Made by a program: the position numbers and the translations under genes. Below, one piece after another: positions 9,993-64,000 of a DNA stretch of 64,000 nucleotides; the first letter of the stretch is position 1; every line of letters starts with the position of its first letter. The notes below the pieces were generated by a model. That model was not told where the DNA came from. It did no database searches and worked only from the letters and a program-made list of their open reading frames with translations. The DNA is from a virus: the IMG/VR virus record IMGVR_UViG_3300019760_000006, positions 28,761 to 92,760 of that record, one strand, 5' to 3'.

Positions 9993-10250
9993 TTATTTAT
10001 TCTCCTCTTTTTGAACACCATACCAAATCTCTTTAAACTTATCACTATCAATCTTATCAAGAGTGTCAGCAAGCTTATAAACCATATCAACCAACTCATC
10101 TCTTTCTTTGATAATATTATTAGCTATATACTTATTAGTACAACAAATAGATTCATCATTTGCACTTGCGATATTGACATCTAAACCATTTGTGTGCCTT
10201 CCAAAAACAAACCACCTTGGGAATCTCTCTTCTACATATCTCTCTATCAT
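9993..10250 (-). CDS. Hypothetical protein
   Basis: 85 aa with AAGGAG SD. Confidence 0.65.
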   Translation of the reverse strand: MIERYVEERFPRWFVFGRHTNGLDVNIASANDESICCTNKYIANNIIKERDELVDMVYKLADTLDKIDSDKFKEIWYGVQKEENK

Positions 10251-10255
10251 TTTAT

Positions 10256-10378
10256 TTATTCTCCTTTATTTGAATCACAAACCCAACTGTCATTTTGTGA
10301 AAGTTCAATATCAGTATAATGATTCATTTGTCCTTCAGCTTCCATTCTTGTTCTAAATTTAACACAAGACAAAAACAT
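10256..10378 (-). CDS. 40-aa paralogue of the C-terminus of 9491..9748 (not in ORF track)
   Basis: MFLSCVKFRTRMEAEGQMNHYTDIELSQNDSWVCDSNKGE aligns without gaps to CVKFKIREEAEEKMNQYIDIDLADNEDWCCD. Confidence 0.55.
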   Translation of the reverse strand: MFLSCVKFRTRMEAEGQMNHYTDIELSQNDSWVCDSNKGE

Positions 10379-10591
10379 AACTACACCTTTTTATTTAAAA
10401 ATTTTAAATATCAAATAGATTGAATCAATACACAATAACTACTAAATCAATCCCTTACAAAATAATATTTACCAGTCCAAGACTCTTCCTTACACCACTC
10501 CTCTGCTTCTTTAATATTATCAAAATCTTTAAATATAATATCTGTTACACAGTGATAATCATTATCAACTTCTACTATCTCAATTTTCATT

Positions 10592-10777
10592 TTATTTTCC
10601 TTTTAAATATTTACAATGAGATAATTCAACCCTTATATTACACAACTCTTCTGTAAGGGCTTTTTGTTTATCAAACATACTATTGACAAACCAATAACAA
10701 TAGCTAAGCCAACAACATAATACAATTATCACTGCAATTAGCCAACAACATGATAGTTTATAAAAATTTTTATCCAT
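10592..10777 (-). CDS. Small membrane protein
   Basis: One hydrophobic helix; AAGGTG SD. Confidence 0.5.
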   Translation of the reverse strand: MDKNFYKLSCCWLIAVIIVLCCWLSYCYWFVNSMFDKQKALTEELCNIRVELSHCKYLKGK

Positions 10778-10788
10778 ACTACACCTTT

Positions 10789-10992
10789 TTATCTAAAAAC
10801 ATTAACATTGTAAGCATTAATAGAGCAAGTAGCGCAATAACAGTTACAACCAACAATAGTCCACCCGTTATCTATGATATCAATTTCATACGCTTCTGGT
10901 ATGTCGTAAGTGCCCCAATTCTTTTCCATAGGTATTTCCATATATTTACCACAACCACTACATCTTATCTTCATTACGCATGTAAAATTCAT
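10789..10992 (-). CDS. Small Zn-finger-like protein
   Basis: CSGC...GW...YCATC; AAGGAG SD. Confidence 0.65.
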   Translation of the reverse strand: MNFTCVMKIRCSGCGKYMEIPMEKNWGTYDIPEAYEIDIIDNGWTIVGCNCYCATCSINAYNVNVFR

Positions 10993-11373
10993 TTTAATCT
11001 CCTTTACAAATTAGTTTTTGTTAAGTTCAAAAACAACTTACTATAACATTTTTATAATGTCAACTATTATTTTTCATATCTTGTAATTTTAAGACTATAC
11101 ATATTATTAGTTTCTATATATAGAAACACTTACATCATTCAATCATCTTATGGATGATAAACACACAAAATACAAAAACAACAATAATTTGTAGTTTATA
11201 TAGTGAGTTACAAGGAAATAAGAGAAAATCTATGAAAACAAGAGCTTTTTAAAACAACAAAAAACATACATTTCTATTGTAACTTCTTATTTTAATTACA
11301 AATATAAACAAAATAAAAATAATCTTGAATTTAGAATAATCTGATATTTGCCTGTAATCAAGAATAATAGGAC

Positions 11374-11402
11374 TTGACAGGCAATAAATTTCAAGGTATA
11401 AT
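11374..11402 (+). promoter_or_regulatory. Consensus sigma70 promoter (junction A)
   Basis: TTGACA-17 nt-TATAAT. Confidence 0.9.
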
Positions 11403-11735
11403 ACTACCTATTAAACAAACAAATTATGAAACTATAAATATATTAGCTATAAATTATATGCCTTTGGCATTAAGTTTATCTTATAAATTTTATTCTTTTA
11501 ATTGTTATTATTAATAAAAAACAAAAGAATAAATTATATATAAATAATTTTATCTCTTTATTTTCTTTTATTAATAAAAACTTAAAGAGATAAATAATGT
11601 TACTTATATATTATATGTCCGTAGGACATAAATATTGTGTTAAAGATTTTATTCCTTTGTTATTTATTATTAATATTAAATAAAGGAATAAATATATAAG
11701 TAACAAATTATATGTACGTAGTACATAAATTATAT
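11403..11735. repeat. Structured non-coding element, copy A (three triloop hairpins, three 45-46 bp inverted repeats)
   Basis: ATGCC-TTT-GGCAT, TATGTCC-GTA-GGACATA, TATGTAC-GTA-GTACATA; TTTATNNNTTT-N23/24-AAANNNATAAA three times; homologous to 49309..49580. Confidence 0.85.
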
Positions 11736-11770
11736 GTTATGATTTTATAATAAATAAAAGGAGAATAAAA

Positions 11771-12106
11771 ATGTTTAATAAGATAAAAATAATCTATAAT
11801 ACATTGTTGTTTATTTCAAGGTATGTTGAAGATTACAACCAATCTAAAGAACATATAAAAAGAGTTGAAAGAGATTTGTATATCGTAAGAGAAGAATATA
11901 GGAGATTGTATTTAGAACACACAAAGATTAAGAAAGAAATAAAAGCAATACAAAAGGATTTAAAACCACCTTATGATGGTGATGTTAGAGTTGTTGATGT
12001 GTTTTGTTCTGTTTGTGGTAACTACATCAGGTCTGTTGAGAGTTTAGATGAGGGTGATATTTACTTTTGTTCTAAATGCCAGAATAATATGTGCAATTAT
12101 AAATAA
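11771..12106 (+). CDS. Coiled-coil plus Zn-ribbon hypothetical protein
   Basis: CSVC...CSKC; AAGGAG SD. Confidence 0.7.
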   Translation: MFNKIKIIYNTLLFISRYVEDYNQSKEHIKRVERDLYIVREEYRRLYLEHTKIKKEIKAIQKDLKPPYDGDVRVVDVFCSVCGNYIRSVESLDEGDIYFCSKCQNNMCNYK

Positions 12107-12149
12107 TAAAAGGAGATATGTTTTTGTAATACAAAAATAAAACAAGTAT

Positions 12150-12389
12150 ATGAAAAACAATAGAAGTGAAGAGAAGATGACTATGAGAGATTACGATAGG
12201 AGATTAAATGATAGATGTGTGTGTTGTAATGAGTTTTTAAATGAGGGGGGTAGGGATGTTATGTGTGACAAATGTAGAAGAGCTTGCTATGAATCAGACA
12301 ATAATTATAATGATTGGTGTGTTGATAGTGTGTTGGGTTGGAATGAAGATATCAGCTTATCTGATCTGAAAATTGATACATGCTATTAA
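12150..12389 (+). CDS. Small Zn-finger-like protein
   Basis: CVCC...CDKC. Confidence 0.6.
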   Translation: MKNNRSEEKMTMRDYDRRLNDRCVCCNEFLNEGGRDVMCDKCRRACYESDNNYNDWCVDSVLGWNEDISLSDLKIDTCY

Positions 12390-12399
12390 ACATTGATTT

Positions 12400-12480
12400 T
12401 AGGTTGATAGAGAGGTGTTTGTATTGATTGGTGTAAGTGTATACGTTTAGAATAAATATCTTTCTATCAGCTTATTTTAT
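12400..12480 (+). terminator. Long G-U-rich RNA hairpin (terminator or processing site)
   Basis: 12401-12422 pairs fully with 12452-12473 (22 bp, 6 G-U), followed by ATTTTAT. Confidence 0.6.
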
Positions 12481-12666
12481 GTGTTAAAATGGAGATTATA
12501 AATAGATGATAGATTTAATTCTATTGAAAGATTATATTTGGTTTGGTGTTTCTTATATTTATATAAAAATGTATAACTATATTCATAAGAAATAACATAT
12601 TTGTAACTATTTATAACAAAAATAACATATTTGTTATTATTTATTACAAAAACGTAATAAAATAGT

Positions 12667-12695
12667 TGCAATAAATTAATATTCATGATATAATT
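12667..12695 (+). promoter_or_regulatory. Sigma70-type promoter with extended -10
   Basis: TTGCAA-17 nt-TATAAT with TG upstream of the -10. Confidence 0.65.
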
Positions 12696-13070
12696 ATTGT
12701 ATTAATTATTTTGATAAATGAAGAAAGGAAGAAATATGGATGATATTGTTTTAGAACTTAAGAAGTTTTATATTTCAGTTATGAATAATGATAAATTAAA
12801 GATTGAAGATAGATTGGATGCAGCGGATAAGCTAAGAGAGTTTCTTAGTGAATATAATGATGATTAATGATAAAATAACTAAACATCGTAAAAATAAGTC
12901 TATAGAAGAACTTAAAAGAAAAGCTGACAAAGCAAGACGAAAAGGTTGGTTCACAGTAGAGGAAATTGATTATGCTGAAGTAGAGGCAGAATATTTAGTT
13001 AAATTGTTTGGTTATAATAAATAATAATTGTTTGTAGATGATTAATAATATTTAGTAGGAGGTGACGAAT

Positions 13071-13406
13071 ATAGATATATTTATGAATTACACTCTTCCA
13101 GATCCTCCAAAAAAGAATAATCCTGAAGAATTTGCTAAAAGAGTTGATGTTTTTATAAATTTTTGGGATTCTCCTAAATTTCCAGGAGAAGATTCAATGT
13201 TTTCAAAAAGTAATCAGATTAAATCTGAGTTTAAAGCTAAGGTTTTAGCTAACACTGAGTTTAAAGAATCAAATGAAAGTATTTATAATAGGAAAACTGA
13301 TTATTCAGATAACTCTTCTTTATCAACTATAAAAGATAACAGTAGTCCAATGGATCATATAATATCTTCTGGTTTTTCCATGGCAGCTATGGGTGGAATA
13401 TTTTAA
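13071..13406 (+). CDS. Hypothetical protein, probable ATA start
   Basis: AGGAGGTGAC-GAAT-ATA; the track's GTG lies inside the SD; alternative ATG at 13083. Confidence 0.6.
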   Translation: MDIFMNYTLPDPPKKNNPEEFAKRVDVFINFWDSPKFPGEDSMFSKSNQIKSEFKAKVLANTEFKESNESIYNRKTDYSDNSSLSTIKDNSSPMDHIISSGFSMAAMGGIF

Positions 13407-13523
13407 TAATAGTTGATTAAGTACTTGCTCTGTTACTAATAAGTAACATCAAATTTGAATCTATAATTTTATAGTCACCTTATACTATTTAATAGATAAG
13501 GTGTTGTAAAATGGAGATATATT

Positions 13524-13748
13524 ATGCTTCCATATGGAATTCCAAGACTCCCTCAAACTGATTGCCCTGATTGTATTGATTTACATTATTTTGGTTTTAA
13601 ATCAAGAAAAGGTAGATTAGACGGTAAGAGTAATATCAGAAATGTTAGAAATAAGAAAGCTACAAGAAGATATTGGAAACGTAAGGAGAGGAGGAGAGCT
13701 ATTAAAGAGATTAACGATGAAATCTATGAAGAAACATCTATTGAGTAG
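13524..13748 (+). CDS. Small basic hypothetical protein
   Basis: MLPYG...K/R-rich C-terminus; GGAG SD. Confidence 0.7.
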   Translation: MLPYGIPRLPQTDCPDCIDLHYFGFKSRKGRLDGKSNIRNVRNKKATRRYWKRKERRRAIKEINDEIYEETSIE

Positions 13749-13760
13749 GAGGTGATTGAC

Positions 13761-14132
13761 ATCAGTAGACCTGTAGGTAGTAACAAAGAATGGCAACAGA
13801 ATAAAAAGATTCTAAAAGCTAAAGCTGATACAGATAAATGGGCTTCTGATTTAGCACCAGAAGCAAGAAAGATAATTAAAGAGCTAATGTTTAGTACAAA
13901 ATCATCACCCGTGGTTAGGAAGGGGTGTGCTGAAATTGTTCTTAAAAGAGTTGATGATAGATTTAAAGAACTTGGTGGTAAGGCTGAATATCTAACTGAT
14001 GAAGAGGTTGAGAAGAAACAACAGCAAGAGCAGTCAGAAAAGGCAAAAAAGAAAACTGAGGAGAATGGTGGAACTCCATTTTTAAGACTTACCTGTGAAA
14101 CACCTGATGAGAAGACAGGGACAAATGATTAA
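13761..14132 (+). CDS. terS: Putative terminase small subunit, probable ATC start
   Basis: Position upstream of TerL; helical protein starting (M)SRPVGS; AGGAGGTGAT-TGAC-ATC. Confidence 0.55.
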   Translation: MSRPVGSNKEWQQNKKILKAKADTDKWASDLAPEARKIIKELMFSTKSSPVVRKGCAEIVLKRVDDRFKELGGKAEYLTDEEVEKKQQQEQSEKAKKKTEENGGTPFLRLTCETPDEKTGTND

Positions 14133-14929: not shown

Positions 14930-16429
14930 ATAAGTAATGAAGAAACTCATCAGCTTGGGCCTTGTAGTAAAAAGCAAGAGATGATTTTAAACAATGATTC
15001 TACCCTTCTAATATGCGGAGGTGCGGCGGGATCGGGTAAAAGTTATCTCTTGCTACTGATGATTTTGAAGTACGTTGATTGTCCAAATTGGCGTGGTGTC
15101 ATTTTCAGGAGATCGTATACAGAAATTGAATCTGGTGGAGGCTTGCTTGATGAGGCATCTGCAATGTATTTTGGCCTCCCCAAAAAATATAGGCCGACAC
15201 TAAATAGATCAAGGGTTTGTTTTACATTCCCCTCTGGAGCGCAACTCCAGCTTGCGTCGATGCAGCATCACCCTAAAGATACTCTTAAGCAATCTGGTTC
15301 GCAATTTAGTTTTATCGGGTTCGACGAACTTTTTACGTTCGAAGAACAGCAATTCGTTTTTCTCTTTTCCCGCCTTAGATCAAGATCAAAATATCCAGGG
15401 AGGGTAGTTTGCACTACAAACCCTTATGGTGATACATTTATCCTGAAATACGTCATAGATAATCTTGATGAGGGCGGTTTCCCTATTAAATCGCTTGATG
15501 GTAAGAAAAGATATTTTATTCGTAGAGGTGAGGATGTAACATTTGCCGATACTGAAGAAGAACTTAAAGAAAAGTTTGGTGATAAAGTAATGCCAATATC
15601 TTTTTCTTTTATATCGGCTAATTGTTATGATAACACTTACCTAATGGAAAATCAACCTGAGTATGTGGCCCACCTGGAGTCACTAAAAGATGTAGATAGG
15701 GATAGACTTTTACACGGTTGTTGGTTTGCGAAAGAGAAAGCCGCTAAATATTTTGATAGAGACTGGCTCAATAAATTAGATGAAGTCCCAAGAGGTAGTA
15801 CTTGTTGTAGAGGTTGGGACCGTGCATCCTCGCCGCCTTCGGAAAAAGAATTACATCCAGATTTTACAGCCTGTTGTAAGGTTTGGAGGACTCGTAATGG
15901 TGATTTTATAATCACAGGCCAGCATAGTAAAAACAATTATGATGATGTAACTAATACTTACGGTAGGTTTAGAAAGACTCCTGGTGAAAGAGAGAATATA
16001 ATTCTTGAACAAGCTATAAGTGATGGAGAATCTTGCACTATAGTTTTGAGTGAAGATCCTGGTAGCGCAGGAAAATTTGAGTATAAGGAAAGTGCAAAGG
16101 TATTAATGTCTGAGGGTTTTCTTGTTAAAAGAGACCCTGCTTGTCCTACAGCAAGTAAACTAAAGAGGTTTGAACCGTTTTCTATTGCTTGTCAGAATGG
16201 TTTAGTAAGCATAGTTGAGAGTACATTTGACAGAAAAACTCTTGATGCCTACTATAAGGAGCTTGAAGATTTTGATGGTGAGCGTTCTTCAAGAACACGT
16301 AAAGATGATCAAGCCGATGCTACAGCTACAGCCTTTAACTACATTTCCCAAAAGAAAAACATCCCGATAGTTTGTAGAAATCAACAAAATTTAAAGACAA
16401 TGTCTAATAGTCTTCTAAATACTCTTTAA
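14930..16429 (+). CDS. terL: Terminase large subunit, probable ATA start
   Basis: Walker A GGAAGSGKS, Walker B FIGFDE, TTNP, nuclease RGWD and DDQAD; the frame extends upstream through GPCSKKQE to ATA 14930 behind AGGAGGTGAT. Confidence 0.93.
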   Translation: MSNEETHQLGPCSKKQEMILNNDSTLLICGGAAGSGKSYLLLLMILKYVDCPNWRGVIFRRSYTEIESGGGLLDEASAMYFGLPKKYRPTLNRSRVCFTFPSGAQLQLASMQHHPKDTLKQSGSQFSFIGFDELFTFEEQQFVFLFSRLRSRSKYPGRVVCTTNPYGDTFILKYVIDNLDEGGFPIKSLDGKKRYFIRRGEDVTFADTEEELKEKFGDKVMPISFSFISANCYDNTYLMENQPEYVAHLESLKDVDRDRLLHGCWFAKEKAAKYFDRDWLNKLDEVPRGSTCCRGWDRASSPPSEKELHPDFTACCKVWRTRNGDFIITGQHSKNNYDDVTNTYGRFRKTPGERENIILEQAISDGESCTIVLSEDPGSAGKFEYKESAKVLMSEGFLVKRDPACPTASKLKRFEPFSIACQNGLVSIVESTFDRKTLDAYYKELEDFDGERSSRTRKDDQADATATAFNYISQKKNIPIVCRNQQNLKTMSNSLLNTL

Positions 16430-31135: not shown

Positions 31136-31540
31136 ATGGGAGATAATGATAATAGTACTTTTTGGGATAGAGTTTTAGATTATCTTTCTAAGGTTATGTT
31201 ACCTTTGTGTTTAGCTGGTGTGTGTTCTGGTGCTTTTTTTGCTTATGGTTCTATACAGTCTAATAAGATAAATGTAGAACATGTTCAGGCAGACATACAA
31301 CGTGTATCCTCAGAACACAATAGTAGAATAATGGCAAACCAAATTGGTTTAGAAAAGACAAACGAGAAGGTGCATAAAATAGAGGTTCTTTGCGAAAATA
31401 TGTATCGAACTTTGGATAATATAGAAGAGAGAATGAGAAGTAACGATAAGAAAACATATTCTGAACTTAAGAATATAAATAAAACTCTTGCTGTTTTAAA
31501 AGATAGAAGTGAAAGGCAGACAGACAAAGAGATTAATTAA
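31136..31540 (+). CDS. Single-TM coiled-coil protein (holin-like candidate)
   Basis: N-terminal TM VMLPLCLAGVCSGAFFAY then a long coiled coil. Confidence 0.5.
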   Translation: MGDNDNSTFWDRVLDYLSKVMLPLCLAGVCSGAFFAYGSIQSNKINVEHVQADIQRVSSEHNSRIMANQIGLEKTNEKVHKIEVLCENMYRTLDNIEERMRSNDKKTYSELKNINKTLAVLKDRSERQTDKEIN

Positions 31541-31561
31541 TACAGGAGGTGATAGTAATTA

Positions 31562-31927
31562 ATGGCATATGCAGGTGATTTAAAAGTTAATTTTACAAAT
31601 CTAATAGCTAAGTATGGAAGTAGTTATACACTGAAAAGGAAGACAAGTTCTGGAACTCTAATAGACCCTTTGAATCCGACAAAAAGGTATGCAGAAACAG
31701 AAACAACACATACAATTACAGGATTTTTATCAGCTTACGACAAAAAAATGATTAACAAACAACTTGTAGAGATCACAGATATTCCTATGTATGTATCTCC
31801 GACAATTACTTTCAATGGTGATACTGATAAGATTACAGTTAACTCAGACGAATATTCTATTGTTACTATCACACCTTACACAGTAAATAATGATGTGATT
31901 TATTATGAACTACAGTTACGTAAATAA
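31562..31927 (+). CDS. Head closure protein
   Basis: LI.KYG..YTLKR...YSIV......VIYYELQLRK pattern. Confidence 0.7.
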   Translation: MAYAGDLKVNFTNLIAKYGSSYTLKRKTSSGTLIDPLNPTKRYAETETTHTITGFLSAYDKKMINKQLVEITDIPMYVSPTITFNGDTDKITVNSDEYSIVTITPYTVNNDVIYYELQLRK

Positions 31928-31956
31928 CTGTGGATACGTAAATAAAAAGGTAGTAT

Positions 31957-32379
31957 ATGGCTAAATCTTTTAAAACATTCGCAAAAGAATTAGATAAAGA
32001 GTTTGATGTTATCAAAGAGGATATCGAACATAAATACAAACAAACAGCTATTGATTTTCTTGATTATGTAACATCACCTCCACCTAAAGGGACACCAAGA
32101 GATACAGGATTTACTTCTAATAGCTGGCACATATCTCTAAACTCACCTTCATTGAATCATGTAGGTGAACCGAGTACATCAACTGGAGCTAATACAGCTA
32201 AAGCACGACAAGAAGAAAGTATTCATAACTTAGAATTAGCAACATTAGAGAATATTAGAAGTATATTTATCAACAATCCAAATTCATGGATAAGTGACTT
32301 AGATGCTGGAAGTAGTACTCAAAATCCTGGTGGGTTTGTAGCTATGGGGGGACAATATGCCGAATCAAAAATTAAATAA
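31957..32379 (+). CDS. Neck protein (HK97 gp10-like)
   Basis: TPRDTG...NSW, NN..W...L..GSS.Q.P.G.V. Confidence 0.8.
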   Translation: MAKSFKTFAKELDKEFDVIKEDIEHKYKQTAIDFLDYVTSPPPKGTPRDTGFTSNSWHISLNSPSLNHVGEPSTSTGANTAKARQEESIHNLELATLENIRSIFINNPNSWISDLDAGSSTQNPGGFVAMGGQYAESKIK

Positions 32380-49088: not shown

Positions 49089-49278
49089 CAACTATTTTCA
49101 ATCTACCATCATTTTCATGATTTCGTCATAGGTTTTTACAAACACAAAAACAAACACAATTTGTCAACATTGTATATACAATTTAGTGATTATATTTAAC
49201 CACTATGTAAAAAATGTAACAATAATTGTATCACTTTGTGGTAGAAATGTAAAAGTTTTGTAAAACTTCATTATTTTC

Positions 49279-49308
49279 TTGACATACTCCTCTTGACAGT
49301 GATATAAT
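49279..49308 (+). promoter_or_regulatory. Sigma70 promoter (junction B)
   Basis: TTGACA-18 nt-TATAAT with extended TG. Confidence 0.8.
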
Positions 49309-49580
49309 GTATACCATTAATAACAAATAATATGAAGCTATAAATTTATACCTCATATACTATATGCCTTCGGCATTAAGTTTATGTAATAAATTTTATC
49401 TCTTTATATTAATATTAATAAAAAAAAGAAAGAGATAAATAATAAAGTTAATAATTATTGTCCTTCGGACATAAATTATATAGCTTATAAATTTTATTCA
49501 TTTAATTGTTATTATTAAAAAGAAAATAAATGAATAAATTATTAAGTAACAAATTATATGTGCTACGCACATAAATTATT
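49309..49580. repeat. Structured non-coding element, copy B
   Basis: ATGCC-TTC-GGCAT, TGTCC-TTC-GGACA, TATGTGC-TAC-GCACATA alternating with two 45-46 bp inverted repeats; homologous to copy A. Confidence 0.85.
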
Positions 49581-49689: not shown

Positions 49690-49766
49690 GAAAGAGATTT
49701 TGTTTTTGTTTATGTTGTATCTATGAAATAGATATGATATGAATGAAAATGAAATCTCTTTTTTTG
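49690..49766 (+). terminator. 34-bp G-U-rich RNA hairpin with T tract
   Basis: 49691-49724 pairs fully with 49728-49761 (8 G-U), GAA loop. Confidence 0.7.
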
Positions 49767-49871
49767 TTTGTGTTATTTGAATGTAATTCTTTTGTAAAAT
49801 GAAATTAATGGTTGTGTTTTATTTTCTTTTGTGATAGGATATTTTTAACTTTAAACAAAAGGAGAAATAAA

Positions 49872-55082: not shown

Positions 55083-56509
55083 ATGAAAAAGTTCAGAAAT
55101 ACTTTTGAAATGGAAATAGATATTAAATTCGAAGATGAAGGTAAAGCTATTGAGTGTTATATTAATAGTGATTGGAAAGACGTGTTTTGGGATGTAAATA
55201 GTATAAAAGATTTGTCAGAGGATCTCGCATTGTGTTTTATTAAAACACCAGAGAGATGGTTTTCTGATGGTGATGATAGTAATATTGGAAGATTTGTTGA
55301 AGGTTTTGGCACTTTTATCTATGATGGTAAAGATTCCTATATATTTAAAGACAGGTATGGCAATTCTGGTGGGGATATTACTATAAAAATTAACTCTGAA
55401 TTAGAAATTGTTGATAGTTCAGATATCTATCTTTGGGAGGATTAGAGTGGATTTAGATACTATTTTTCATTGGTCAGTTTTTGTTTCTGGATGTTATTTT
55501 ATTATTCTTTCATCGATTGTCAAAACAAAGAATCTTAAAAGTACGTTAATTTTCAAAACTATACCATTGTTGTGTGGAATTTGTTGTTTAAGTGCTGGTG
55601 CAGTCCTTTTAGGTTTCTTTTAGGTTTTATATAATAGAGAGGAGAAAAATTATTGAGTAAAACAATTATAGATTTACAAAATGTAAGAGACCAAAGTGAT
55701 TTATTTTGGTTGATTTTAGAAAGTCTTCCATACAAAATTGAGTGGATGTCTTATGAAGCTATTGAAAATGTTTTAGATTGTTGTGAAGAAGTTTTTGATG
55801 ATGAATAATTGAAAGGAAGATGGTGATAATATGAAACAAGTTAGATGTAAAAAGACAATAACAATTAGCAACACAGTCTGGCACACTGCTGGTGCTATAT
55901 ATGATGTTCTTTACGAAGATTATGATGAAGATGGAAAGTCATATATCATCTCTTCAAATAATAATGAAGCGCATTGGATTGGTGTTCCTGGAAATAAATG
56001 GTTTGATGAATATTTTGAGGAAATATAATGGAATACAAAAACAAAGCAAGATATTGTAAATATAATGTCAACAGGGGTTGCCATAACATTGTTAATCCTT
56101 TTTGCACATATTCAGATGAAGTGGTTAGCAAGATTAAACTTCCACCTAATATCTACTGGTATAGACACATAGTAGATGAAGAATGTTGTGAAAAGTGTGA
56201 ATGTTTTGAACCAGTCAAGTTGGAGGATAATAAATAATGAATATCCACCCACTATTAAAGGGATCTTATAATAAATCTAAATGTGATGGATGCTCTTCAA
56301 GATGTTGCAATGAAATAGAAGAAGAAGAAGAAGGAAGTGGTGTATGTTGTCAGTTTGTTTCATGTGGACCTAATCCAATGTGTTTTGTTGATAAAGGGAG
56401 GCTTCCATGTCCAAAGTGTATGTTTTGGACAGGTTATGGAAATGAAGATATAGATCTTCATAATTGGAATTTATTAATGTGTAATAGGAAAGAGGGTCTA
56501 ATAAAATGA
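55083..56509 (+). other. String of small hypothetical ORFs (55083, about 55448, 55654, 55831, 56028, 56237)
   Basis: SD-led, tightly packed; several Cys-rich, one membrane protein. Confidence 0.6.
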
Positions 56510-57222
56510 AAAAATATTCTATCGGTAACAGAATGAAAGATAATTATGAAAGTAGAAGTAAATATAAATTGATTAGAAGAATGCCTGCGATCATTAGGTT
56601 AGATGGCAAAGCTTTTCATACAATCACAAGAAGGTGTGATAAACCTTTTGATGAAGATTTGTCAATGATTATGATGGAAGGTATGAAGTATTTACTTGAA
56701 AACATACAGGGAGCTAAGTGTGGATATCAACAATCAGACGAGATTTCAATACTTCTAACTGATTTTGATAAACTAACAACAGATGCATGGTTTGATAATA
56801 GTATACAGAAGATTGCAAGTGTTTCAGCATCAATGCTAACAGCCGATGTAAACTCTAAATGGGATTTTGAAAATAGCTTTAACAGAAAATTTGATAGTAA
56901 TAAATATTTCTTGTTTGATAGCAGGTGTTTTAATATCCCAAAAGAAGAAGTTAATAATTACTTTATTTGGAGGCAGAAGGACTGGGAGAGGAATAGTATT
57001 CAGATGCTTAGTAGAAGCTATTTCTCACATAAAGAATGTCACAAAAAGAATTCGTCAGATCTGCATGAGATGCTTTATACAAAAGGTGTAAATTGGACTG
57101 ACCTTTCTGGTAAATGGAAGAACGGTGTATTTATGTATAGATGTGAAGATAAAAGCATTAAATCAGATTGTGATATCCAGTTTATTAAAGATAATTTTAT
57201 TGAGGGTATGTATCTGAGATGA
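56506..57222 (+). CDS. thg1: Thg1-like tRNA(His) guanylyltransferase / 3'-5' nucleotidyltransferase
   Basis: RMK..YE, RLDGKAFH, KPFD, QSDEIS, FD...QK..S..AS, FDSR, YFIWRQ.D..RNSI. Confidence 0.92.
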   Translation: MKKYSIGNRMKDNYESRSKYKLIRRMPAIIRLDGKAFHTITRRCDKPFDEDLSMIMMEGMKYLLENIQGAKCGYQQSDEISILLTDFDKLTTDAWFDNSIQKIASVSASMLTADVNSKWDFENSFNRKFDSNKYFLFDSRCFNIPKEEVNNYFIWRQKDWERNSIQMLSRSYFSHKECHKKNSSDLHEMLYTKGVNWTDLSGKWKNGVFMYRCEDKSIKSDCDIQFIKDNFIEGMYLR

Positions 57223-61491: not shown

Positions 61492-62169
61492 TTGAGTAGG
61501 AAAATAAATGTAAAAAAGAGACAAAGATTTAATAGATGGGTTGTGATAAAGGAGGTTAAACAAAAATGTAATCAAAGAAGATTCTTGTGTAGATGTGATT
61601 GTGGTACAGTAAGGGAGACTCCGTTAGGACACTTAGTTAATGGAAGTTCTAAATCTTGTGGTTGTTACCACAAAGAGATTGCAACACAAAGTTCTTCCAC
61701 ACACAAAAAATCAAAAACTAAAATATATAAATTATATCACGGGATCAAAAAAAGATGTTATAATGAAAATACAGTCGGATTTGAATACTGGGGCGGGAAA
61801 GGTATTAAGATGTGTGATAAATGGCTAAGTGATTTTGAGATTTTTGAAACTTGGGCATTGAATAATGGATATGAAGAAGGACTTTCTATTGAAAGATTAA
61901 ATAATGAGGAGGATTATTGTCCTGAAAATTGTATTTTTATACCGAGAAATGAGCAACCATTAAATCAAACAAAGAGGAAGGATAATACCTCAGGTTACAC
62001 TGGAGTGTATGTACGAGGTAAAGATAAAGATATCTACTACGCTATGATAAATTTTAATAAGATAAACAACAATCTTGGTACTTTCAGTAGTAAAAGAAAA
62101 GCTGTTATGGCAAGAAATTATTTTATTATTAATAATAATCTCCCACATAAGCTACAGGTGTTGAAATGA
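61492..62169 (+). CDS. Free-standing HNH-type endonuclease with AP2-like C-terminus
   Basis: CRCDCG, SCGC, KRCYN, GGKGI, SIERLNN..DYCPENC, NTSGYTGV. Confidence 0.85.
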   Translation: MSRKINVKKRQRFNRWVVIKEVKQKCNQRRFLCRCDCGTVRETPLGHLVNGSSKSCGCYHKEIATQSSSTHKKSKTKIYKLYHGIKKRCYNENTVGFEYWGGKGIKMCDKWLSDFEIFETWALNNGYEEGLSIERLNNEEDYCPENCIFIPRNEQPLNQTKRKDNTSGYTGVYVRGKDKDIYYAMINFNKINNNLGTFSSKRKAVMARNYFIINNNLPHKLQVLK

Positions 62170-64000
62170 TATACGTTGCCGATAGCGAGTCAGACGGTCT
62201 CTCAGATAAGATGACTAAATTCCACTGTTGGTGTTTTAAAGTATTGGATGAGAAGAGGTTTTTTATATTTTGCAATTATGAGGAGTTAGAGTCTATTATA
62301 GAGGAGGTTAGTGGAAAAAACTATAGAGAACTTTTTGAAGAGAAGTATAATGCAACATTTTTTGAGTTAAATGATTATGTGAAATTATTACAAAGCGAAA
62401 AAACAACTAAGATTATTCTACATAATGGAATAGGATTTGACTATCCAGCCATGAAGAAAATGAATAACATTGACTATGGTATTGGACCTGATTTTATAGG
62501 TGAGAACAAACAACTAATTGTTGAAGACACATTGGTGTGGAGTAGATATTTAAATCCTGAGAGACAACTTCCCAAAGGTTGTCCTAAATCTATACCAAAA
62601 GTTGGGGGCGGCAGCAAGAAAATAGGACCACACTCTTTAGAAGCATATTCTTATCTAACAGGTATTGCAAAACCAACTGTTGTTGACTGGTCAACAAAAC
62701 CTCTTCAGATCTATGTTCATCGTTGTTGTGAAGATGTTTTGAATAATGAAGCAACTTATCATCTCTTATGTAAAGAGAAAGCTGATGTAGCGTTATCTAA
62801 TGGTAGTAAGAAGGGTGATTGGGAAATGCCATTAAAGATGGCTAAGAAGGTTTATCATCTTATGTGTGAACAAGAGAGGACAGGGGTACTCTTCGACCAA
62901 AAAAAAGCGGAAGATCTTGTTGTTTATATTGATAAAGAAATGAAAGAAATTGCTGAAAGAGTTGAACCTATCCTTGGTGAGAGAGAGTTACCAAAAGGCC
63001 AACAACCAAACTTCCCTAAAAATCCTTGGAGGAAAGCTTTTGATTATGAACGCCCATTCACAACAACAGGTAAGCTAAAAAAGGGGGTTATTGATTATTT
63101 ATCTTTAATTGGATTAACCACTGAAAAAGACCAAATAGAATATATAAAAAACAAAATAGAAGAAGATGATTTATCTGGAATTATGAAACACCCATCCCTC
63201 TTATCGGCAAGTGCAATATCTTTTTGTAATAAATTTGGTATTACCGAAGAACAAGAAATGTTTGAAGAGATTTGTAAGATTGAGAGGGGTAATAAAGGTG
63301 TTAAAAAATTAACAGAGAAGTTAAGGCTTAGTCATAAAACAGACACGAAGTATTTTTTGATGCAAGAGTTTGGGTGGGTTCCTACTATCATAAAAAATCG
63401 TAACATCTTAGTTGATAAGAAGACAAAGAAAAATCTTTCAGAAGAGAAAGTTACCGCTGGTGTTGAGAGATATTTAAGGGATATGTATGCCACGCCAATG
63501 TGGAAGATTATTTGTAAAGATTTCGGTTATAAGAAAGAAATCAAGAAACCATTTAGTGAAGCTTTTCTTGCTAAAATAAGAAAACAAGGTAGGAATTTAC
63601 CAGCATCGGCACAATACACGGACCAGAGAGGTGAGCTGTGTCCAAACCTTGGGAAACTAAATGCTCCTGTTGCAAAAGATATTGTTAAGTATTTATCATT
63701 GCAGAACAGAAGAACCACGTTGAAGAGTTTTGATAAAGATACAGGTTGGTTAAATAACAAGAGGTTGGGGGTTGATGGTAGATTACCAGCAGGTCATTCT
63801 GGTATAACCCCTACATTTAGGAAGAAACACACATGTTGTGTTAATGTCCCTAAGCCAAAAGATCATGTGTTGTTGGGTAAAGAGTTTAGAGGGTTGTTTA
63901 TTGCACCTGAAGGATACACTAATGTGGGCGGTGATGGAACAAGTATTGAAGCACTTGTAGCCAGCCATTACACTCTACCTTTTGATGGGGGTCTTTATGC
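62166..64000 (+). CDS. polA: Family A DNA polymerase with 3'-5' exonuclease (partial; not in ORF track)
   Basis: Manual translation open to the window end: DSESDGL (ExoI), HNGIGFD (ExoII), PHSL, RCCEDV (ExoIII), DGRL, R..H, motif A GDGTSIEAL. Confidence 0.92.
   Translation, partial: MIYVADSESDGLSDKMTKFHCWCFKVLDEKRFFIFCNYEELESIIEEVSGKNYRELFEEKYNATFFELNDYVKLLQSEKTTKIILHNGIGFDYPAMKKMNNIDYGIGPDFIGENKQLIVEDTLVWSRYLNPERQLPKGCPKSIPKVGGGSKKIGPHSLEAYSYLTGIAKPTVVDWSTKPLQIYVHRCCEDVLNNEATYHLLCKEKADVALSNGSKKGDWEMPLKMAKKVYHLMCEQERTGVLFDQKKAEDLVVYIDKEMKEIAERVEPILGERELPKGQQPNFPKNPWRKAFDYERPFTTTGKLKKGVIDYLSLIGLTTEKDQIEYIKNKIEEDDLSGIMKHPSLLSASAISFCNKFGITEEQEMFEEICKIERGNKGVKKLTEKLRLSHKTDTKYFLMQEFGWVPTIIKNRNILVDKKTKKNLSEEKVTAGVERYLRDMYATPMWKIICKDFGYKKEIKKPFSEAFLAKIRKQGRNLPASAQYTDQRGELCPNLGKLNAPVAKDIVKYLSLQNRRTTLKSFDKDTGWLNNKRLGVDGRLPAGHSGITPTFRKKHTCCVNVPKPKDHVLLGKEFRGLFIAPEGYTNVGGDGTSIEALVASHYTLPFDGGLY

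Follow-up and report, generated by a model that had tools for sequence, protein, structure and literature searches.

A duplicated A/T-rich hairpin array behind two perfect sigma-70 promoters of an uncultured microbial-mat phage: a probable leader RNA of early transcripts, or possibly an origin activated by transcription

An array of small hairpins was found directly behind two of the only three sigma-70 promoters that score 12/12 in the whole 92,760-bp record of a phage assembled out of microbial-mat metagenomes. The array element is real. Its predicted structure, the paralogy of the two copies, the covariation of their stems and the boundaries of the two units can be read from the sequence. 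Since the homology between the copies runs from the -10 box to just after the last hairpin, the duplicated conserved unit appears to be a promoter core plus the array transcribed from it. The array is so far confined to this one phage, and it is unexplained. Its two leading candidate roles are that of a leader RNA, structured and made early, and that of an origin that depends on transcription; the choice between action as RNA and action as DNA is not decided by sequence alone. We tentatively favor, at nearly but not quite an even chance, an RNA transcribed early, a platform of hairpins about one turn long, which would act on elongation or on an RNA-binding protein. New in this work are the unit boundaries, the contrast in G·U pairs between the arrays and the terminators, and the precedent of the phage c2 ori for the origin alternative.

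The phage record

The window, that is the whole stretch of 64,000 nt analyzed here, corresponds to bases 28761-92760 of a 92,760-bp IMG/VR virus record with a GC content of 32.9% and a CheckV completeness of 71%. The genes of the record include those for the large terminase (TerL), portal, ribonucleotide reductase, exonuclease, primase-helicase and DNA polymerase; the largest ORF (2432 aa) encodes the tape measure protein, and the phage is long-tailed. Nothing resembling a phage RNA polymerase or sigma factor was found across the record, so transcription of the phage probably depends on the host RNA polymerase. The remaining 28.7 kb of the record outside the window has no ORF of at least 500 aa. 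A Pfam RNA_pol search of the phage gave no match, and the control genomes were equally silent in it. The phage is contained in four microbial-mat DNA runs, which show zero variants within the array; no RNA run was listed as containing it. An apparent 11519-to-11678 joint in the DNA runs was traced to cross-mapped contigs of array B.

Architecture of the two arrays

A first-pass annotation of the same DNA had described a perfect promoter followed by short (S) and long (L) hairpins in the order S-L-L-S-L-S, and had stated that the element is present twice. The promoter, all the hairpins and their order were found exactly where it had placed them (Table 1). The second copy lies at 49279-49580, 38 kb away and in the same orientation, and is about 78% identical to the first; no third array copy was found in the genome. 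The L hairpins have arms of 11-12 bp and A/T spacers of 23-24 nt containing TATTAA, and their loops share a conserved A/U apical segment, UUAUUAAUA. In the S hairpins, stems of 5-7 bp carry triloops that a C-G pair closes. Array B has the order S-L-S-L-S, which brings the hairpins across both copies to eleven. The local alignment of A and B starts at the -10 box (11397/49303) and is firm to just after S3 (11733/49579); upstream of the -10 box the two copies share the -35 hexamer only.

Table 1. Features of units A and B, in window coordinates.
Feature	Coordinates	Strand	Description
Promoter P(A)	11374..11402	+	TTGACA 11374-79, 17-nt spacer, TATAAT 11397-402; score 12/12
Leader of array A	11403..11448	+	Matches copy B from the -10 box on (AUGAARCUAUAAAU)
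S1 of A	11449..11479	+	Inner ATGCC-TTT-GGCAT at 11458-70, UUU loop; 7-bp outer stem with the sole U·G
L1 of A	11489..11533	+	11-bp arms, 23-nt A/U loop with TTATTAATAA
L2 of A	11549..11594	+	12-bp arms; extra module, missing from the order of B
Long-range helix of A, 5' strand	11598..11612	+	15 bp, encloses S2 and L3
S2 of A	11614..11630	+	TATGTCC-GTA-GGACATA
L3 of A	11648..11692	+	11-bp arms
Long-range helix of A, 3' strand	11691..11705	+	Closes round S2 and L3
S3 of A	11706..11731	+	TATGTAC-GTA-GTACATA at 11711-27, AAUU/AAUU outer stem
ORF1, 111 aa	11771..12106	+	Coiled coil and CxxC-x17-CxxC zinc ribbon; orphan; predicted to be co-transcribed with array A
ORF2, 79 aa	12150..12389	+	Cys-rich, no family match
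Terminator T(A)	12400..12484	+	Long hairpin 12400-12473, 31 pairs including 9 G·U, then U-tract; closes unit A
Promoter P(B)	49279..49308	+	TTGACA-18-TATAAT; score 12/12
Array B	49355..49577	+	S1 49355-85, L1 49395-439, S2 49459-71, L2 49493-538, S3 49552-77
Possible 9-bp long-range helix of B	49448-56/49537-45	+	Place homologous to that of the helix in A
Terminator T(B)	49690..49775	+	~35-bp continuous stem 49690-49766, 8 G·U, GAA triloop, then U7; closes unit B

Chance expectation and covariation

Chance does not account for the arrays. The RNA fold z-scores were -6.8 for A and -5.1 for B, and the L pattern was matched five times against 0.02 expected. Local perfect hairpins of at least 10 bp numbered three in A (0.31 in shuffles; reached by 2/500) and two in B (0.17 in shuffles; reached by 5/500). 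Perfect hairpins of at least 7 bp were not above chance in such A/T-only composition, so the S hairpins count by their G-C cores, homology and covariation and not by stem length. Perfect 10-11-bp inverted repeats at any spacing are also expected by chance in the composition of the array. Given these two cautions, the case rests on the repeated architecture, the homology and the covariation.

The arms had been said to differ in sequence from module to module and yet to stay complementary, and the covariation analysis, which was computed on paralogues inside one genome, bore this out: 55/55 cells of the five L stems pair, with three covarying pairs and six double changes, a result reached by none of 500 shuffles. 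All 15 of the variable cells in the L arms pair, and the variable position of the S stems, which reads C-G, A-U or G-C, pairs too.

Complementary arms could also mark duplex-DNA operators, or neutral template-switch palindromes in an A/T-rich spacer, with no hairpin function. The control regions of this phage hold many perfect palindromes with 3-nt centers, a compensated 3-nt block and a loop inversion in the arrays look like templated DNA events, and the chance-level 10-11-bp repeats fit such a view. In the sites of dimeric binding proteins, however, arm complementarity is unneeded at uncontacted positions, yet every variable L cell and the variable S position pair; and the conservation of the whole unit at ~80% over a separation of 38 kb argues for purifying selection. 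We consider an operator or neutral origin of the palindromes very improbable.

Pairing beyond the single modules was also observed. The 15-bp long-range helix of copy A is perfect, is part of the minimum-free-energy fold, and has a length reached by 5/1000 shuffles. In the possible 9-bp helix of copy B, one strand has changed from TAT to ATA and the other, in compensation, from ATA to TAT. The helix in A fits one folded strand, and with the homologous compensated helix in B it supports a function as RNA; on the other side, the helix in B is below chance length alone and lies outside the minimum-free-energy fold of B, which extends S2 instead. The outer stem of S1 carries U·G in A and C-G in B, a difference that is neutral in + strand RNA only. 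A single + strand would account for both this change and the long-range helix, which speaks against an origin.

Transcription units and the RNA platform

Unit A has the order P(A)-array-ORF1-ORF2-T(A), and unit B has the order P(B)-array-T(B). Unit B is free of ORFs, so its predicted product is an RNA of ~455 nt. T(A) and T(B) lie on the same strand as the arrays and close units that are separate from the late and replication operons; the fold of T(B) has an energy of -35.4 kcal/mol and a z-score of -11.5. Several features of the units point to a function in the transcript. The A/B homology is bounded by the -10 box and S3, as expected of a promoter-plus-transcript unit; both copies face the same way behind 12/12 promoters; both units end in strand-specific, G·U-rich terminators on the same strand; and covarying stems with conserved loops and linkers are the usual pattern of protein-bound RNA hairpins. 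An RNA can easily form loops of 23-24 nt, which in a cruciform would be expensive.

In the reading that we favor, the host RNA polymerase would make two immediate-early transcripts from the consensus sigma-70 promoters, with the arrays as their 5' part. The nascent RNA would fold into a row of hairpins of about one helical turn each (11-12 bp), in which the S hairpins would form G-C-clamped triloops and the L hairpins would show their conserved A/U apical segment; in copy A the long-range helix would enclose S2 and L3. This multivalent RNA may serve as a protein-binding platform and would most likely act on the polymerase in cis during elongation, as nut, put, canT or conAn2 do; the array would then govern whether the polymerase stops at the strong terminators T(A) and T(B) or passes them. 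Candidate partners are the small zinc-finger proteins whose genes come next after array A. Transcription of the units, a role at the RNA level, binding of a protein and an effect on elongation are all inferred.

The order promoter-array-(zinc-finger genes)-strong terminator-long operon occurs twice, and no convincing sigma-70 promoter was recognized between T(B) and the first gene of the replication module, both of which favor the cis version. Directly downstream of array B are the exonuclease, replication-initiation-like, primase-helicase and DNA polymerase genes. Against the cis version, the late operon beyond T(A) owns a further good promoter at 12666 (TTGCAA-17-TG-TATAAT), upstream of which the motif AATAACATATTTGT is twice repeated in an operator-like manner. 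Eleven hairpins over two copies are many more than known systems use. In addition, T(A) and T(B), with 31-35 pairs, look like hard stops, because 15-bp terminator stems already resist conAn antitermination (PMC10325885) and the stems of T(A) and T(B) are far longer. An attenuator reading was dropped: S3 with its extension and UUUU is terminator-like in A, and this arrangement is unconserved in B.

Comparison with antitermination elements and sponge RNAs

The lambda nut element consists of boxA and boxB, that is one 15-nt hairpin plus boxA, and works with the N protein; the HK022 put element consists of two hairpins in about 70 nt. Like lambda nutL/nutR and HK022 putL/putR, the arrays are two paralogous elements downstream of two early promoters and before operon-gating terminators, with stems that covary between the two copies. 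The first gene behind one of the lambda copies is that of the antiterminator; behind array A come two small zinc-finger ORFs. In both units the array occupies the nut/put position between an early promoter and the first terminator, read-through being only predicted. Unlike nut and put, each array has 5-6 hairpins over ~300 nt at 14% GC, and both array promoters point the same way; no boxA/boxB consensus or two-stem put fold was found in the arrays.

Cis-acting RNA antiterminators of 260-600 nt are present in Gram-positive mobile elements (PMC8191782, PMC11658703). The canT element of Tn916 has 452 nt and conAn2 of pLS20 has 260-600 nt, and their primary sequence is poorly conserved (PMC11658703, PMC8191782). 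The arrays belong to the same size class and are placed likewise, with a strong promoter on one side and, on the other, terminators that precede a long operon. The conAn2 element, however, requires a 16-bp GC-rich tract together with SL1 and the upstream conAn1 gene; the arrays have no GC tract (14-15% GC) and no gene between promoter and array. Neither canT nor conAn2 has modular repeats, unlike the arrays. If the array works as RNA, it would differ from nut, put, canT and conAn2 in being an early platform built of modules from A/U only, and the circuit around it would be simple: a promoter, the array, two orphan genes for zinc-finger proteins, then a terminator of great length.

A close second within the RNA-level reading is a trans-acting early sponge or decoy, because unit B is a complete ORF-free promoter-to-terminator gene. 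Its repeated hairpins would draw away a ribonuclease, a defense factor or some RNA-binding protein of the host. Taken by itself this is rather unlikely in our estimate, which is counted inside that of the RNA-level reading. The sponge RNAs CsrB and RsmZ titrate CsrA/RsmA through repeated GGA loops. The arrays share with them repeated hairpins with a similar motif and, in unit B, an own promoter and terminator. The repeated multivalent modules with a conserved L-loop motif would suit a sponge, as would the very high early expression that perfect promoters seem to imply. The arrays have no extended complementarity to other phage sequences, so regulation by base pairing is unlikely. On the other hand, the arrays are A/U-only, known sponge motifs, whether GGA-type or other, are missing from them, they lack a known protein partner, the S loops are unconserved, and the objections raised below from Watson-Crick purity and low GC apply equally to a sponge. 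A reading as Y-RNA with a TerD protein was dropped: the 630-aa neighbor of array B is an orphan without such a domain.

Evidence bearing on a replication origin

The first-pass annotation had put a DNA-level cruciform array, such as a transcription-activated origin, first and a modular non-coding RNA second. Both readings survive, and we reverse their order, modestly. As an origin, each array would be transcribed from its strong promoter, and no DNA of the genome would unwind more easily. Folding of the S and L palindromes, in the unwound strands, in the transcript or in both, would hold the open state or form a primer; two copies would mean two origins, as in SPP1 oriL/oriR. We regard such an origin as possible, though unlikely. 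Precedents for origins of this kind are the PE1 transcript of phage c2, the T4 oriF/oriG R-loops, the T7 primary origin and ColE1 RNA II.

Base composition speaks for the origin and against the RNA platform: among all 300-nt windows of the genome, the two arrays rank lowest in GC (13.7% and 15.3%). Structured RNAs of A/T-rich genomes are usually GC-enriched, and the extreme A/T richness of the arrays, opposite to this trend, is what a DNA unwinding element would require. Composition by strand tells the same way. Unpaired positions of A comprise 92 A and 93 U, so that the A-over-U bias is absent; the composition of A is strand-symmetric, and the RNA fold energy is equal on the + and - strands. 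The GC skew of the genome is confounded with gene orientation, from which it is inseparable, and lends the origin no help.

The strongest contrast concerns G·U pairs. The array stems had been described as pure Watson-Crick, which holds for all core stems and fails at one U·G in the outer stem of S1 of A (C-G in B). Their distinction from the other hairpins of the genome is confirmed: one G·U was counted in 139 pairs of array stems, versus 17 in 62 in the terminators of the same units and about 20-27% in the RNA hairpins of the phage genome, the ordinary 13-16-bp terminators having 2-4 each. This purity favors the origin and is a point against RNA. It may also be explained at the RNA level in two ways. 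First, very long RNA stems may need G·U pairs against lethal perfect palindromes, an explanation that leaves the G·U pairs of the 13-16-bp terminators unaccounted for. Second, template switching may create perfectly compensated blocks in one step, and the adjacent triple change and the loop inversion resemble template-switch events.

The S loops give a mixed picture. Five of the six do read GNA, as had been claimed, but only when the strands are mixed: the + strand supplies GTA twice, and the - strand supplies GAA twice and GTA once. Read along the + strand alone, the loops are UUU, GUA, GUA, UUC, UUC and UAC and are unconserved, and the S3 loop is inverted between copies (GTA vs TAC), which counts against RNA. 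The inversion of the S3 loop, and the C-GNA-G on either strand in 5/6 S hairpins, count for the origin. N4 hairpins of a similar small type extrude at physiological supercoiling (PMC4496689). For the arrays, however, the 23-24-nt L spacers make extrusion from duplex DNA costly, and as single-stranded DNA the modules reach only -3 to -8 kcal/mol.

The likeness to phage N4 might go further, with S hairpins that extrude as promoters and are read by a hairpin-specific phage RNA polymerase. Stems of 5-7 bp, 3-nt loops and a G-C-rich core are found in the N4 early promoters, which are read by the virion RNA polymerase, as in the three S hairpins of each array (PMC4496689). The S hairpins nonetheless do not carry the conserved -11 purine, -10G and -8G on one template strand; their loop bases vary among hairpins and switch strand. 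No such polymerase is encoded, the 2432-aa ORF being the tape measure protein of a tailed phage that is not N4-like, and the hairpins lie inside a transcription unit of a host promoter. We rejected N4-type promoters as extremely improbable on the two grounds of the missing polymerase and the missing strand-consistent loop bases.

Genomic position is the other argument for replication. Both arrays lie at divergent junctions, and array B is directly upstream of the replication genes. The Ceduovirus c2 ori is ORF-free and lies between divergent early and late blocks, and the non-coding PE1 transcript from the first early promoter is essential for initiation (PMC7150918). The ori types of the lactococcal Ceduovirus groups have no common sequence (PMC7150918), which fits the missing homologues of the arrays. 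The arrays resemble the c2 ori as regions at divergent junctions headed by an early promoter, and the ORF-free unit B is a close match in layout. Layout alone matches, however: in a direct comparison the c2 transcript region was not an A/T-only hairpin array (fold z -0.5). Moreover, c2 has one ori, while the present phage has two copies, one of them in a unit with two ORFs, and a replication role is only a candidate here. No iterons or initiator-binding direct repeats were evident in the arrays.

A more specific version is that of twin origins of a new build, in which the C-GNA-G mini-hairpins and the long A/T hairpins would fold on both strands and in the transcript, hold the bubble open and load the phage primase-helicase, so that N4-style supercoil-driven extrusion would be put to use for replication instead of transcription; we think this rather unlikely. 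If the array acts as DNA, it would be a case of hairpin extrusion used to build a phage origin, and this would explain why its stems avoid G·U while the neighboring terminators are full of it.

Relatives of the array

The array did not match any described family of non-coding RNA above chance, in agreement with the earlier view of it as unexplained. Rfam 15 at the gathering threshold gave a tRNA-Ile only for the whole window, and three chance-level matches of 14-19 bits for 11200-11900 at E<=10. Mimicry of a CRISPR repeat was rejected, there being no Rfam CRISPR-DR match within the array. Searching 10000-14000 against GenBank phages by blastn gave no match, and exact-pattern scans of IMG/VR and GTDB genomes, for which both linkers (S1-L1 and L-S3) and a consensus each of S and L served as patterns, gave chance matches only.

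Conservation of the modules in relatives, which the first-pass idea of selected structure would lead one to expect, was not found. A covariance model of L recovered the five window copies only from 1.28 Mb of related loci, and its best scores in ten whole related virus records were 20-24 bits. No comparable hairpin cluster was found near TerL in the relatives from IMG/VR and the JGI metagenomes (TerL <=46% identical). The 654-aa neighbor of array B has no relatives, and those of the exonuclease are only distant. The absence of the element from the relatives examined, together with covariation drawn from paralogues of one genome, weighs against the RNA platform. The missing homologues leave function unrefuted because the relatives searched are distant; closer TerL relatives, P0002 and P0003, exist at 71-72% identity.

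Two related phages of 90-95 kb, G001 and G002 (TerL about 45% identical), carry 2-3 perfect promoters upstream of the TerL operon, at a divergent junction that is syntenic and falls in the lowest-GC window of their own genomes. A tRNA and a structured RNA of ~340 nt that is free of ORFs are predicted to be transcribed from these promoters. In the ORF-free RNA a GNRA loop is present, and a change that distinguishes G001 from G002 is compensated. The relation of this RNA to the arrays is one of analogy and not of homology, and a structured ORF-free RNA at the syntenic junction is one more point in favor of the RNA platform.

The third 12/12 promoter of the record, at genome position 15555 and thus outside the window, is followed by ~440 nt that contain no ORF, are rich in hairpins and run up to a terminator.

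Untranslated stretches behind consensus promoters

The phage record (92,760 bp) holds three promoters that match both sigma-70 hexamers (TTGACA and TATAAT) fully. Two precede the paralogous hairpin arrays A and B; the third stands at the head of a unit of ~440 nt with no ORF, many hairpins and a terminator at its end. Because this third promoter also heads an ORF-free unit, all three consensus promoters of the phage drive long untranslated stretches. The coordinates of the features are summarized in the table.

Table. Features of the phage genome and of a related phage locus (G000, whole record of the phage; G002, related phage)
Feature	Position	Remarks
Palindrome GTTTCTATATATAGAAAC	window 11110-11127	perfect, 18 bp; leftward-promoter side of divergent gene junction A
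ORF1 (first ORF after array A)	window 11771-12106	111 aa; N-terminal coiled coil and CxxC-x17-CxxC zinc ribbon
T(A), intrinsic terminator of unit A	window 12400-12484	long G·U-rich stem
Extended -10 promoter	window 12666	TTGCAA-17-TG-TATAAT; within region 12590-12694
Palindrome ATTGTATATACAAT	window ~49168-49185	14 bp; matching side of divergent gene junction B
T(B), intrinsic terminator of unit B	window 49690-49775	long G·U-rich stem
tRNA-His guanylyltransferase (Thg1-like) gene	window 56506-57222	phrog_4717, E 1e-80; in replication module
DNA polymerase ORF	window 62166-63998	continues past right end of record
Open frame	G000 1-672	enters from left end of record
TTGACA-17-TATAAC promoters	G000 731, 5205, 7746	+ strand, left arm; outside window
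Third perfect sigma-70 promoter and unit	G000 15555-15994	ORF-free, hairpin-rich; ~13.2 kb before window start
Promoter-cassette region	L036:1000-1820	IMGVR_UViG_3300023173_000001, genome ~31470-32290; same place in G002

In related complete phages (the L036 locus and G002), a promoter cassette (…TTTAGGGGTTGACAAATCC…) is found in three copies, two of which match both hexamers fully. These cassettes are predicted from sequence to drive a tRNA and a structured, ORF-free RNA of ~340 nt, in which CCTTAAGG-like motifs are abundant; a compensated stem change distinguishes the two phages. Rfam detected nothing in the cassette region except the tRNA and a sub-threshold YrlA match.

Terminators and ORF1

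The predicted terminators T(A) and T(B) have stems of exceptional length (31-35 bp) with tandem UG/GU pairs. In pLS20, terminator stems of 15 bp already withstand processive antitermination (PMC10325885). Both strands of the phage genome carry, at scattered sites, further long hairpins that are rich in G·U pairs and run into a U-run.

The cysteine spacing of ORF1 is that of DksA/TraR-type factors, which bind the secondary channel of RNA polymerase. ORF1 gave no DksA/TraR match in Pfam and is an orphan protein.

Record ends and other promoters

The DNA polymerase ORF is cut off where the record stops on the right, and on the left the record begins inside an open frame. For this reason the contig may be an almost complete genome in circularly permuted form, although CheckV puts it at 71%. 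There is no exact join between the two frames.

The AATAACATATTTGT motif occurs twice immediately 5' of the extended -10 promoter, and this region looks like an operator-controlled promoter of the late operon. In the left arm, each of the three TTGACA-17-TATAAC promoters is followed by ATAAACATTG, a form that may represent a distinct promoter class.
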